From assembly GCA_958009085.1 (NCBI GenBank), contig OY253683.1:930001-977003 (forward strand): a DNA stretch of 47,003 bases, given 5' to 3'. A model generated the notes under the pieces. It was given only the letters and a program-made list of their open reading frames with translations. It searched no databases and was not told the origin of the DNA. Positions within the stretch are counted from its first letter, which is position 1, and each line of letters starts with the position of its first letter. This document shows, in pieces, positions 42,538 to 47,003 of this stretch. The translations under genes were made by a program, and so were the position numbers. The stretch comes from Protoeuglena noctilucae (Eukaryota).

Positions 42538-42848
42538 CCCCCCTCTCTCGAAGCTGCCGCGAGGGGCTACGACGAAAGGACTGGTCGAAGAAAGGACCGA
42601 CCGGGGGCCGGCGCGGTGGCCCATCGCGGGGGGCCAGGTTTCCGTGCAAGAAACACGCAGCAGCGTGGGTCTGACTCGCTCCTGAGGGGACCCGGGCTCC
42701 TGCAGCCGTTTCGGATGCACTCTGACGCTCGAAGGACTCGGCCGGCCGACTCTCGGGGCTTCTCACGCGCCCGTCGCTCTCCACGGGACAGCCGCCCAGG
42801 GTTCGTGGCTCGCCGCGCCGGCTGAGCGCGCCAGTCCTCGCGCGCGGA

Positions 42849-42879
42849 TTTATACAGGCACATCGCTGTCACGTACGTG
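42849..42879. promoter_or_regulatory. Candidate promoter elements between the divergent RPL21 and RH47 genes
   Basis: TATAAA on the minus strand (42849-42854) and a perfect palindrome CACGTACGTG (42870-42879). Confidence 0.3.
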
Positions 42880-43013
42880 TGAAGGAGTGTGAGGCGGCGG
42901 GTGAGGGTGCGGGAGGAGTGCGCTTTGGTGCTGTGCGCATTGCGAGCAGTCTCCACGGCCTCGGGACGCGAGACTTACCGTCAGGGGGACTCCCTCGTCG
43001 ACCAAATTGGCGA

Positions 43014-45686
43014 ATGAATGCGTTCGCGAAGGCCGCCGAGCTCCGCTGCGCCGCAGGGCCGCGGAGGTCTGCAGGGCGTCCGATGTCCCTCCCGTGTGCG
43101 TGCCTCCGGCACGCGGCCGTGCGGGCGCTGCGGCCCCTGACCGTGGCCGTCCCCGCGCGTCGCGGCGCAGCGAGTGTGACCGCGTGCTCCCCGCGCCGGC
43201 GCCCCACTGGCAGCCCCGTGCCCTGCCGTGCCGTGGCTGCCCCCGGGGAGGGCGTGGAGGGGAGCGTCACGCGCGAGGGATGGGCCGAGGAGGGCGATGG
43301 GGTGGCTAGGGAGCAGGCGGACGCCGCGCAGGGGTCGACCGGCAGCGCGGAGGCGCCCGGCAGCACTGCAGCGCCCTCGCCGCCCCGCAGCTTTGCGAGC
43401 CTGGGGCTGCTGCCGGCGCTGGTGTCGCGGTTGGCGGCGCAGGGCATCCGCGAGCCCACGGACATCCAGATGGCCGCCGCGCCCGTGCTGCTGCAAGGCC
43501 GCGACGCGGGCCTCCGTGCCCACACGGGGAGCGGCAAGACGCTGGCGTACCTGCTTCCCCTTTTGACCGGGGTGCTGTCGGGGGCGCGGCTGGACAAGCC
43601 GCGGAGGGGCCGCGGGGAGGGGACCGCGGACGACAACGACGTGCGTGTGGTGGTGGTGGCGCCCTCGCAGGAACTGGCCATGCAGATCGGTGAGCAGGGG
43701 ACGGGGGGGCAGGGCAGGCCCAATGCCAAGCCCGAGGCGTTGACAAGGCGCAGTTGCTGCTCTGCTTTTCTTCACTCGCTCCCCACCCCCTCTCTCTCCG
43801 CAGTGCGCGTGGCCCAGGGCCTGCTCCCGGACGACTGGTCCCGTGCCGTGCAGCAGCTGATCGGTGGTGCCAACATCGCCCGGCAGGTCGAGGCCCTCCG
43901 CATGCACCGCCCCCTTGTCGTCGTTGGCACCCCCGGCAGACTGGCCGAGCTAGACCGCCTGGGTCGCCTGGGGCTGCACCGCGTGCGTGCGGTGGTGCTG
44001 GACGAGGCGGACCAGCTGCTGGCGGACCACTTCCGGCGGGACATGGAGAGGATCATGGAGCACGCGGGGAGGAAGGCGACGGTGAGGGGCTAGGGGAGCG
44101 TGACACATGAGGCGCATGCGCATGCGTGTGTGGGCCACAGCGATGCCATACATCCCCCCTTCGTCCACCCCCAGGGCGGCCGTCAGACGGTGATGGTGTC
44201 TGCCACGCTGTCCCCCGCGTCCATGCGCCGTCTGTCCCGCTGGGCATCACCTGGCCGCGAGGAGGCGCAGCTGGTGGCGGCATCCACCGCGCCCCTGCGC
44301 CCCTCCCCTGCCGTGGCGGCCGGCGCCCCCCGCCGCGCGCCCGGCACCCCCTCCTGGGGCTGGGAGCAGGCAGAGGAGGGCTGGAACCGCGACATGGGGG
44401 TCTTCACCGAGGCGTCCGCGGGGGGGCGCTTCTCGGACGACGTCGTGGGGGAGATGCCGCCCAACGTCGGTGAGTGCGAGATGCCATGCGACGTGGGTGA
44501 GAGGCAGTGATGTGGCTGCTCGCATGCAGCTCACATCCCCATGCGTTCGTGCGCTTGCAGAGCACCGCTTCGTGGTGGCCCCTGCCGCCCGCAAGGTGGA
44601 CGCGCTGCGGCGCGCCATCCACGCCCTGGACGCACGCAAGGCTTTGGTTTTTATGAACTTCGGGCGCCGCCTCCAGGACACGCAGTTTAAGCTCGAGGCG
44701 CGGGGGATGCGGTGAGGGGCGGGGTGCCATGGCATGGGCGTGGGCAAGGGCCTGCCGCTGCCTCGAGTTCGCCTGCCCAACCTTGCATGCGCTCGCGTCC
44801 CTTCTCCCCAGCGTGGCATGCCTGCACGGGGAGATGCGCAAGGAGCAGCGCAAAGCGGTGCTGGACGGCTTCCGCGATGGGGACACGCGCGTGCTGGTGG
44901 TGTCGGACGTGGCGGCACGCGGACTCGACCTGCCAGGTGATGCTGGCTGGGGATGCTGGGGCTGATGAGTTGCGGGGGGGTGCGTGTGTGTCAGCTGTCG
45001 CCACTGCCTGCCCCTTGCGTCGCTGCCGAAGAGAGTGCCACACGCCGTCACCCACCCTGTCTCCCCCCGCAGCGGTTGATGCCGTTTTCAACCTCGAGCT
45101 CCCCAGCAATGCACCCCACTTCGTCCACCGGGCGGGGCGCACGGGCCGCGCTGGCCGCCCCGGCGTGGTGGTGTCGGTGGTGGAGCCGAGGGAGCGGTTC
45201 GTGGTGGGGAAGCTGGCGAAGGGGCTGCAGTGCGAGATGGTGGAGGCGGTCGTGGAGGGGGGGGAGCTGCGGGAGGGGAGGGAAGGGCCGAGGGGGGAGG
45301 GGAGTGAGGGGCGGGGGGGATCGCCCGTGTCGCGGAGAGGGAGGGGGCGCGATGAGGATGAGGGGAGTGATGGGGATGAGGGAAGCTTAGATCGTGAGGG
45401 GCGTGAGGGACGTGAGGGACGTGGGCGGGGACCATCGCCGGTGTCGGGGAGGGGGGCCGGGGAGCGGGCGGGGGGAGGCCGGTACGGGGCAGGGGCGGCA
45501 GGGCGGGGGCGGGGAGGGCGGGGCTCTGCGGAGCGGGGCTCCCCGAAGTGGGTCGCTGGAGAGCGGGTCATGGTGGAGCGGGGGTCTGCAGAGCGGCTCT
45601 CGGTGGAGCGGAGGTCTGGGGAGCGGGGCAGGGGTGCGGGGCATGGCAAGGCGCCCGGTAGGCCGCAGCGCAGCCGCGGGGAGTGA
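43014..45686 (+). CDS. Organellar DEAD-box RNA helicase (RH47/ISE1-like) with RG-rich tail, 6 exons
   Basis: Q motif FASLGL...PTDIQ, then TGSGKT, APSQELAMQI, VQQLIGGANIARQ, GTPGRL, LDEAD, SAT, DVAARGLD and HRAGRTGR, preceded by a transit-like N-terminus. Start is 43014 or 43083. Confidence 0.92.
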
Positions 45687-45888
45687 CGTGCTGCGCCGAG
45701 ATTGAAGGCGCGTGGTTAGGTTGTTGGTGTCTCTCGCCCATGCTTGGCAGGTACAGCTGTTGGCACGCGCATGCAGGGCCAGGGGGCGCCGGCCTGGCTG
45801 CAGCTGCGCTGGGCCCCGGTCCGGGTACGGCCTGGTGGCGCTGGGGCTGATGGGGGCGGCCGCGGCGAGCGGCCAGTCGCAGGTGCCC

Positions 45889-46063
45889 CTGACTGACTTT
45901 CCTTCAACAAGGCTCACAGCTAAGGTCGCTGACCTATCTCTTGCCACTCTTGCCCGGGGCCCTCGAGCAGTGGCTTCAGCTGCTTTGGCAGCGCCAGGGC
46001 CAGCAGCTACCAACACCAGGGAAGGTCGCATCAACGGTGTAGCATACATCACCACCGCCTAGC
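45889..46063 (-). ncRNA. Structured RNA-like repeat, copy 1 (family not recognised)
   Basis: Diverged copy of 46180-46363 with helices conserved by compensatory changes. G-U pairs indicate the minus strand. Confidence 0.6.
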
Positions 46064-46169
46064 CAAAAACAGGGCGAGGCCCTGGACCCGGCGAGCCGGT
46101 CAAGGGAGGGGTCTCTTGGGAAGTTACTGAGCAGGGCGAGGGGCCCTGGAGAGGAAAAGCCCCCTGAGG

Positions 46170-46363
46170 GACTGACTGACTGACTGACTCGCTTCAAAGG
46201 GCACACAGCTTAGGCCTCGGGCCTATTGCTCGCCAGTTCTAGCCTATGACTAGGGGTCCGGTCCCTGGACCTGGCTTAAGCCGCTTTGGCAGCACAAGGG
46301 CCTATGCTACCAACACCCAAGAAGTTCGCATCGGCTGTGTAGTGTACATCGGCACAGCCTAGC
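46170..46363 (-). ncRNA. Structured RNA-like repeat, copy 2, with (GACT)5 tail
   Basis: Its distal part aligns to copy 1 at an offset of 300 nt. Same helices plus one extra hairpin. Confidence 0.6.
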
Positions 46364-46725
46364 TTAGAGGTGGAACCCGAGGGAAAAGCCACCCGAGGGC
46401 AAGGAGGGCAAGCCCCCCTGTGCCGGGGAAGGCACATGCAAGAAGCAAGCGCAAGACCCCCAGATACGAGGGCGGGTGCCCGCTAGGCGGGCTCAAAGGG
46501 CTGCAGCAAGGCAGCGGGGGCAGCTGCAAGACGGCGGGTAGGCGGCGCGGCGGCTGCCACTCCCCCCGACTCGCAGGGCCGGGCTGGGGTGGCGGGCTCA
46601 GTGGCTCACCGCTTGAGAGCCCTGGTGCATGGGGAGGTGCCCCTGGGGCGCCGCCCTCTGCACCCTGGGCCCGGCCGCCCCATCATGGCGGCGCTCGGGC
46701 ACGAACGCCGATGGGGAAGGGGAGT

Positions 46726-47003
46726 GGGTGAGGGTTAGGGTGGTTAGGTAGGGTTAGGGTTAGGTTAGTTTTTTTGGTCAGTTTTTTAGGGTAGTTTTTT
46801 GGGTTAGGGTTAGGGTTAGGGTTAGGGTTAGGGTAGGGTTAGGGTTAGGGTTAGGGTTAGGGTTAGGGTTAGGGTTAGGGTTAGGGTTAGGGTTAGGGTT
46901 AGGGTTAGGGTTAGGGTTAGGGTTAGGGTTAGGGTTAGGGTTAGGGTTAGGGTTAGGGTTAGGGTTAGGGTTAGGGTTAGGGTAGGGTTAGGGTTAGGGT
47001 TAG
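46726..47003 (+). repeat. Telomere (TTAGGG)n with degenerate proximal zone
   Basis: Near-perfect TTAGGG array from about 46801 to the window end (two TAGGG variants). Degenerate, T-rich units at 46726-46800. The G-rich strand runs toward the end. Confidence 0.98.

Follow-up and report, generated by a model that had tools for sequence, protein, structure and literature searches.

A transcribed RNA module with a conserved fold near a chromosome end, from an unrecognised multi-copy family

A structured RNA module of about 185 nt is present in two diverged copies near a chromosome end, in a 47,003-nt stretch of DNA that was analysed as a whole (the window). The module is real, transcribed and structurally conserved, and it belongs to an unrecognised multi-copy family. 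Comparison of its copies supports selection acting on the RNA fold of the minus strand. The module is most likely derived from a retroposon; that it moves by retroposition, that a reverse transcriptase recognises it and that it acts in any way at the chromosome end are what we infer from its features.

Copy 1 (type 1) occupies 45889-46069 and copy 2 (type 2) 46170-46363, both on the minus strand. A MAFFT alignment gives a mean column identity of 81%, and the two diverged copies described earlier from the letters alone (the sequence-only reading) are present where that reading placed them. Their gap-free repeat blocks are offset by 300 and 301 nt. Both copies lie 370-840 nt from the TTAGGG telomere. 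The bounds of both copies come from the alignment, and contigs from other loci break at the ends of copy 1. Similarity goes a little beyond the bounds first given, reaching 46069 in copy 1 and a (GACT)5 run (46170-46189) in copy 2. Read on the minus strand, both copies begin at GCTAGG. In copy 1 a T-rich lead (46064-46069) stands before it and the last letters are AGTCAGTCAG (45889-45898), whereas copy 2 has one hairpin more (46239-46253) and its (AGTC)5 tail, at 46170-46189, is longer. This minus-strand AGTC tail has 2.5 units in copy 1, 5 in copy 2 and about 2 at other loci. The 47-kb window holds four matches to (CTGA)n, all at the two element tails, with 0.56 expected. The 5' boundary is the same in these two copies and in a third copy, described below, from public sequencing runs: a pyrimidine-rich run followed by CUAG/G (the stroke marks the boundary).

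Further copies in the window were sought by blastn (7-nt words) and, as the sequence-only reading had proposed, by a covariance model built from both copies. Blastn found none, and the model recovered only those two, scoring copy 1, one of its training sequences, at 206 bits. Tandem Repeats Finder called no array with a period near 300. The two units are of two diverged types, and there are other loci at which one type occurs alone. The tandem arrangement, which had been taken as a defining property, is therefore incidental. We also rejected a tandem subtelomeric satellite, given two units of two types and no regular array.

The minus-strand RNA is predicted to open with hairpin A at its 5' side and to continue into a closed multi-branch domain, where helix B would enclose hairpin C and helix D, and D would enclose helix E (with hairpin G) and hairpin F. 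In copy 1, helix A (46033-46039 / 46053-46059) closes a 13-nt loop with seven pairs, of which one is changed on both sides between the copies and two are changed from G-U to G-C. Helix B (45902-45905 / 46021-46024), a long-range CUUC/GAAG pairing, can be read directly in both copies, as had been claimed; it is only 75% paired in the MAFFT alignment, where it is displaced by one column. Of all the helices it is the weakest, and RNAalifold favours a nearby three-pair closure. Helix C (45985-45992 / 46006-46013) is invariant between the two copies and has GGCCCU in its loop; RNAalifold lengthens it by four pairs into this loop, two of them compensatory. Helix D (45916-45921 / 45978-45983) encloses helices E (45943-45947 / 45970-45974), G and F (45923-45927 / 45931-45935), and both E and F contain a single pair that differs on both sides between the copies. 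Helix G (45951-45956 / 45964-45969, loop AGGGCCC) is misaligned by MAFFT and was taken from direct reading of the sequence, in which a stem surrounds a 7-nt loop in both copy 1 (45951-45969) and copy 2 (46255-46271). Single-sequence folding forms it as well, together with the extra hairpin of copy 2 (46239-46253), so that both features of the sequence-only reading can be read directly and are also folded.

Helices A-F, as originally written, comprise 35 pairs, and 97.1% of the 70 cells of the two-copy alignment are paired. Pairing is complete in both copies for helices A, C, D, E and F, and the two unpaired cells both lie in helix B. Three pairs have changed on both sides and four on one side only, by way of G-U. 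The claim that both copies share one minus-strand fold is borne out by the full pairing of helices A and C-F and by these three double-sided changes. When the 3' partners were slid by 1-3 columns, pairing fell to 30-44%. A pairing-based column-shuffle control gave 60/500, and with two rows such a control has no discriminating power. We therefore used shuffles scored by RNAalifold consensus energy. In 300 column shuffles that preserved the pattern of identical, differing and gapped columns, the minus-strand consensus energy was -28.6 +/- 4.0 kcal/mol, compared with -51.2 kcal/mol for the true alignment (z -5.6, 0/300 as good); on the plus strand z was -2.0, and 7/300 shuffles were as good. RNAalifold also found helices A, C, D, E and F unprompted, in a consensus of 41 pairs with six changed on both sides. 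Differing columns amounted to 12/70 of the paired and 42/110 of the unpaired columns.

Evidence against the fold comes from the single sequences, whose predicted stability did not exceed that of dinucleotide shuffles: z was +0.81 and -0.92 on the minus strand and -0.52 and -0.18 on the plus strand. Thermodynamic stability was therefore not counted as support; the fold signal is structure common to the copies, not unusual stability. The covariation is drawn from only three or four sequences.

The third copy served as an out-of-sample test, as the helices had been fixed before it was seen. It covers 45907-46069 with 16 differences and occurs in all four public runs examined. The test took 10 of the 16 differences, the other six being within 30 nt of the alignment ends. 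Five of these 10 fall in paired places and touch four pairs, two of which have partners (45918 and 46058) in those unlisted end zones. None of the four touched pairs is broken on the minus strand, compared with two of four on the plus strand. The changes 45992 C>T and 46006 G>A together form a double change, from G-C to A-U, in helix C; those at 45951 and 45981 give G-U, and that at 46034 makes a G-U into G-C. In a simulation with 10 random changes of the same transition/transversion split, no pair was broken in 641/20000 trials (P about 0.03). The selection on RNA structure proposed in the sequence-only reading thus gains support both from the consensus energies (z -5.6 on the minus strand vs -2.0 on the plus strand) and from the pairs kept by the third copy. 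Its remark that mismatches resolve on the minus strand only also agrees with the data, since changes are compensated or become wobble pairs there. The GAUGCGA motif that it called conserved is altered in the third copy (46027 C>T). At another type-2 locus, the two listed differences, 46219 and 46262, lie in loops F and G, and the latter converts the AGGGACC loop to AGGGCCC, the form of copy 1.

A kissing-loop pseudoknot had been proposed between loop G and the GGCCCU of loop C, and we regard it as an unproven candidate. The loops are indeed complementary, the match being 6 nt long in copy 1 and 4 nt long in copy 2 of the window, and a 6-nt match between loops of this size has a chance of about 0.003 per loop pair, and hence of a few per cent over all loop pairs. 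Against the proposal, the contact is backed by no covariation, and the RNAalifold extension of helix C pairs part of the GGCCCU loop and so competes with the contact. Loop G also includes the self-complementary GGGCCC, so intermolecular pairing is equally possible. Dimerisation loops are known from retroviruses and retroelements, and by a speculative analogy, drawn from the letters of the loop, loop G could pair between two molecules.

Dispersal of the module was assessed in public sequencing runs. Among 24 runs listed, 12 contain all or part of the stretch, and seven of these at least half of its words; the runs holding it, four of them RNA, come from three studies and represent organism A, marine metagenomes and metatranscriptomes. 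Four runs were compared over 44500-46730: X1 (organism A, kind unknown), X5 (a DNA metagenome), and X9 and X10 (metatranscriptomes). This evidence consists of contigs, in which neither strand nor true level is readable, and our statements cover the pieces and loose ends listed. Zones of X10 without cover, e.g., 44725-45399 and 46225-46374, were not used as evidence.

Depth over the element rises from 59.7 to 560-830 in X1 and from about 14 to 200-310 in X5, and in X1 a 92-nt contig that matches 45890-45981 letter for letter has a depth 5.6 times the baseline. These jumps indicate a multi-copy element, with about ten copies per genome by a crude k-mer depth estimate. In the four runs, contigs end at 45889/45907, 46069 and 46177 and then continue unlike the window and unlike each other. 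Because they break at the same places, several loci have common element ends and differing flanks; the same sharp ends, with unrelated flanks on both sides, occur in at least four loci. No relation exists among the sequences that lie upstream of the module in the window's two copies and in the third, and the ~185-nt module stands behind at least three different upstream bodies. A 268-nt contig of X5 matches 45952-46174 (copy 1 plus spacer) with one difference and then departs from the window; as it has copy 1 without copy 2, the two copy types are not always neighbours. Among the pieces listed, a single-copy 1316-nt contig (X1 and X5) shares with the element no more than the tail-proximal 67 nt (45889-45955). 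This one case has the appearance expected of a 5'-truncated insertion. Exact-pattern scans for the conserved core gave no matches in metagenome, prokaryote genome and viral contigs. The minus-strand frame of the element (residues 1-60 of the 45390-46058 translation) had no protein match with E<=0.01 among 276 candidates of 122-391 residues.

Transcription of the minus strand is indicated by an RNA 3' end. A contig of the third copy, of 875 nt in X9 and 358 nt in X10, ends in both RNA runs in 36 loose letters, which on the plus strand comprise 16 or more consecutive T and then GACTGACTCTCTTC. Where the T run starts in the RNA runs, X1 and X5 have C. We interpret the T run as non-templated poly(A) on minus-strand RNA, added right after the AGUC repeat; it falls exactly after the conserved AGUCAGUCA. 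A minus-strand transcript, whose absence would have counted against the sequence-only reading, is therefore supported by a poly(A) end in two RNA runs. The same contigs extend past 46069 by 676 nt (X9) and 159 nt (X10) of sequence unlike the window. RNA contigs cross both element ends, and the sole break that they have in common is the poly(A) end, although contigs are not able to reveal cleavage. No spliced joints at the element boundary were seen in the contigs of the four runs, from which rare forms may escape. The RNA contig retains the pyrimidine run, so the third-copy RNA is unspliced at its 5' boundary.

The surroundings of the two copies are themselves repeated in part. The telomere occupies 46729-47003 on the plus strand, as degenerate T-rich variant units and then (TTAGGG)n to the window end; Tandem Repeats Finder reports 46801-47003 with period 6 and 34 copies. 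The spacer between the copies (46070-46169) has about 3.4 times the baseline depth in X1, contains an internal direct repeat (46070-46087 / 46132-46150, read by eye) and accompanies copy 1 in at least one other locus. Around copy 2 there is a direct repeat, whose 22-nt left member (46149-46170) directly abuts the tail and whose right member (46379-46399) is 15 nt beyond the GCTAGG boundary. Its members are identical at 19/22 positions with one gap, and none of 3000 control pieces scores as high; a local tandem duplication (X-tail-E, X-tail-E, X) accounts for it equally well. A search for a duplication flanking copy 1 gave nothing significant, its best repeat being matched by 366/3000 controls. 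Upstream of copy 2 in the minus sense, 46364-46728 is multi-copy (X1 depth 190-229, baseline about 60). A 1698-nt RNA contig of X9 matches 46177-46728 with nine differences and runs on past both ends, and elsewhere the repeated unit joined to copy 2 extends for 1.2 kb or more. Beyond 46728, all four runs read the same non-telomeric letters, which indicates that the telomere here cuts off a longer repeated unit. In addition, an X10 contig matches 46018-46126 and then switches to telomere repeats, suggesting that some natural cells end this chromosome about 600 nt earlier. The G+C content of the window is 64.7%. For the pelagophyte Pelagomonas calceolata, the genome report gives TTAGGG telomeres, a G+C content of 63% and six chromosomes (PMC9481584), with which the stretch would be compatible.

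The last protein gene before the module is a DEAD-box helicase (42726-45686, plus strand), with a PF00270 match on 42726-44093 (E 1.2e-26) and a low-complexity Gly/Arg/Glu-rich tail (ORF 44691-45686). Its stop codon is about 200 nt before copy 1, and the gene is convergent with the element RNA. Codon-position GC gave no clear coding signal in 46362-46682 and the spacer, and the stop-to-stop ORFs are low-complexity.

The sequence-only reading had recognised no known family, and searches against Rfam agree with it. Rfam 15 gave no matches at gathering thresholds in the whole window, with ribozymes, snRNAs, SRP and RNase P/MRP included; no hammerhead, HDV, twister, pistol, hatchet or hairpin ribozyme reached its Rfam 15 threshold. 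At E up to 10, the region 45600-46750 gave only noise, in which the best score overlapping the element was 16.3 bits against a threshold of 55. ARAGORN found no tRNA-like gene. Several known identities were considered and rejected. A classical SINE is not indicated, as there is no tRNA, 5S or 7SL-like head and there are no Pol III boxes. CTAG after a plus-strand hairpin recalls a Helitron end, and its neighbouring bases and the other end do not fit. Terminal inverted repeats were absent by eye and not listed at the element ends, and a C/D-box or k-turn in loop A lacks a CUGA partner. The Penelope-like telomeric elements Athena and Coprina have a 3' tail that can pair with the telomere repeat, along with a hammerhead motif; the present element gave no hammerhead match, and its tail is AGTC, not CCCTAA. 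Within the library searched, the literature on pelagophyte and stramenopile retroelements, introners and subtelomeres yielded no description of such an element.

The sequence-only reading had offered three identities, a candidate new ribozyme, retroelement RNA or telomere-associated ncRNA, and of these retroelement RNA fits best, because the element is multi-copy, has sharp ends, differing flanks and a repeat tail, stands behind different bodies and is represented by a 3'-terminal fragment; the ribozyme fares poorly, as discussed below. More specifically, we see an even prospect that the element serves as the 3' recognition module in a retroposon family of SINE-like or non-LTR type. The module, which would be either SINE-like itself or a 3' end common to several longer elements, ends in a short (AGUC)n repeat after which its transcripts are polyadenylated. 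In families of this type, a partner reverse transcriptase recognises the structured 3' end together with the simple-repeat tail and copies the RNA at a nick in the target or at a DNA end that is free. It is proposed that the fold is kept by compensatory changes between subfamilies because the reverse transcriptase recognises this 3' structure. Several findings weaken this reading: no reverse-transcriptase gene linked to the element turned up in the 26 ORFs covered of the window's 67 of at least 200 aa, a flanking repeat stands out around copy 2 only, and a Pol III-type head is lacking. The copy number is low, and exchange between chromosome ends can also spread sequences.

The closest parallel is provided by the eel elements UnaL2 and UnaSINE1, whose 3' tails carry simple repeats. 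The published account of UnaL2 describes SINE/LINE pairs with a common conserved structured 3' tail that is needed for mobilisation (PMC1636434). The likeness lies in a conserved 3'-terminal structure with a simple-repeat tail, different bodies, dispersed copies and sharp 3' ends, and the main difference in a single stem-loop there versus about 185 nt and seven helices here. The present element also differs in its AGTC tail unit, in having about ten copies and in that no partner reverse transcriptase was seen.

The main alternative is that the module is a cellular, Pol II-transcribed and polyadenylated structured RNA, or a 3'-UTR or terminal-exon module, with a role, for example, in forming transcript 3' ends, in stability, in localisation or at chromosome ends, and that it has been spread by DNA duplication. 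We consider this unlikely but deserving of serious attention. A fold conserved on the minus strand and poly(A) placed exactly after AGUCAGUCA are expected of such an RNA, and the pyrimidine run with CUAG/G at the 5' edge resembles a splice acceptor. The subtelomeric position, with transcription directed inward from the telomere, also fits, as does the result that no reverse transcriptase was found in the 26 of the window's 67 ORFs of at least 200 aa that were covered; the five Pfam matches were all host-type. However, sharp ends in at least four loci with unrelated flanks are hard to obtain by duplication alone, and the 67-nt tail-proximal fragment sits within unique sequence. The splice-acceptor resemblance is further weakened by the lack of any spliced joint at the boundary and by the unspliced third-copy RNA contig.

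On a further reading, the retroelement or ncRNA family whose 3' end the module forms would act at the chromosome ends of a telomerase-bearing organism. We find this doubtful, at a small chance. In this scheme, the RNA would be copied onto broken or eroded ends, with the DNA end priming at the (AGUC)n tail. It would explain the unique sequence that abuts the tail and the head-to-tail copies with tails centromere-ward, as well as natural end variants that stop at different points and are capped by TTAGGG (X10, at 46126). Telomere-associated retroelements include HeT-A and TART of Drosophila, Zepp of Chlorella and the Penelope-like elements Athena and Coprina. The copies described here resemble these in lying less than 1 kb from the telomere, head-to-tail and with the RNA 3' end centromere-ward, the orientation expected from chromosome-end-primed reverse transcription, and in the unique sequence abutting the tail. 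They differ in the ordinary TTAGGG repeats, in a tail that is not telomere-complementary and in giving no hammerhead match, and two copies in one orientation could be due to chance.

It is improbable, in our estimate, that the module is a plain subtelomeric repeat, with a fold that is a by-product of GC-rich palindromes seen in few sequences and with transcripts that are read-through noise. Single-sequence folding that is no better than shuffles agrees with this idea, as do the two full sequences only, the pairing shuffle control (60/500), the adjoining multi-copy block (46364-46728) and the X-tail-E periodicity in the window. On the other hand, a by-product would not be expected to give a consensus z of -5.6 with 0/300 shuffles as good and a clear asymmetry between strands, helix changes that are compensated or pass through wobble on one strand only, a third copy that passes an out-of-sample test, or a substitution rate in paired columns half that of unpaired columns. 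Known subtelomeric repeats and transcripts include the Sultan elements of Chlamydomonas, which form subtelomeric arrays, and the inward subtelomeric ARRET transcripts of yeasts. The likeness to these consists of a repeated unit just inside the telomere and transcripts that run inward from the telomere side; in contrast to them, the window has two units of two diverged types and no array, and the module occurs elsewhere with other flanks. To our knowledge, a conserved RNA fold is not a described property of Sultan-type or ARRET repeats.

Very improbable is an introner-like or other DNA-transposon-derived element (MITE) that came to lie near the telomere by chance. At about 190-210 nt, the element approaches in size the peak of 210-bp introns ascribed to introner elements in the Pelagomonas genome report (PMC9481584), and copy 1 is bounded on the plus strand by CAG/GT... 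and ...CAG/G. However, of the three copies only copy 1 has such splice-like ends, terminal inverted repeats are absent, and the 47 kb of gene-rich sequence contains no further copy. Moreover, the element stays in the RNA contigs, whose poly(A) ends fall within it, with no joints in four runs, and an introner was rejected on these grounds. Finally, a new self-cleaving ribozyme, possibly processing element RNA out of longer transcripts, would suit the compact multi-helix fold with its possible loop-loop contact and the sharp 5' boundary of a module whose RNA contigs extend upstream, yet it is extremely improbable given RNA contigs uncut across that boundary, no Rfam 15 ribozyme family even at E up to 10, loop-loop pairing without covariation and GAUGCGA altered in the third copy (46027 C>T).

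On either of the two leading readings, retroposon or cellular RNA, the element has no Rfam model. Should it prove a cellular ncRNA, it would represent a new family of structured RNAs linked to subtelomeres. If the favoured retroposon reading is true, the element would be the previously undescribed 3' module of a retroposon from a marine GC-rich picoeukaryote, abundant enough to show up in ocean metagenomes and metatranscriptomes, with a conserved fold that is unusually large and situated right at a chromosome end. Were the chromosome-end scheme to hold, the seven-helix fold would be a new recognition structure, possibly with a self-complementary dimerisation loop. The retroposon module would also offer a compact RNA with compensatory changes for studying template recognition by a reverse transcriptase or some other partner, and it would serve as a marker of how chromosome ends in this lineage are rebuilt.

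Downstream of the DEAD-box helicase, the last protein gene before the telomere, block 46364-46728 has approximately 3.5 times the baseline depth in X1, a run of unspecified kind. At other loci this block is carried onward beyond 46728 into non-telomeric sequence. It therefore belongs to a longer repeated unit, of which the window's end holds a truncated copy with the telomere as its cap. The innermost telomere units, at 46729-46800, are degenerate and include T-rich variants in which 6-7 T precede AGGG or GGG; these are followed by a regular TTAGGG array.

The C-terminal part of the helicase ORF (45271-45643) is of low complexity, rich in Gly, Arg and Glu, and composed of short tandem repeats with periods of 9, 15, 24, 30 and 41. 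A contig from the metatranscriptome X10 that matches window positions 45697-46015 at 100% links the helicase 3' region with copy 1 of the structured repeat-RNA element, which is read on the minus strand. The contig comes from an RNA run and does not itself give the strand; it represents either a helicase 3' UTR that extends antisense into the element, or a transcript of the element that reads through towards the helicase.

Copy 2 carries a T at position 46262 in the window versus a G in all X1 contigs that cover the site and in most of those from X5 (a DNA metagenome) and X9 (a metatranscriptome). Since the family form of this helix G loop is AGGGCCC in the minus-strand sense, the AGGGACC read in the window could stem from a difference between strains or from a mistake in the assembly. 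By eye, the spacer between the two copies contains an imperfect direct repeat (46070-46087 and 46132-46150, CAGGGCGAGG..CCCTGGA) flanking a 44-nt segment.

A further X10 contig matches window positions 46018-46126 and then continues into telomere repeats. Some members of the natural population thus have a version of this chromosome end that is approximately 600 nt shorter and lacks copy 2. As the contig's source is an RNA library, it may derive either from a transcript that contains telomere repeats or from DNA carried over into the library.
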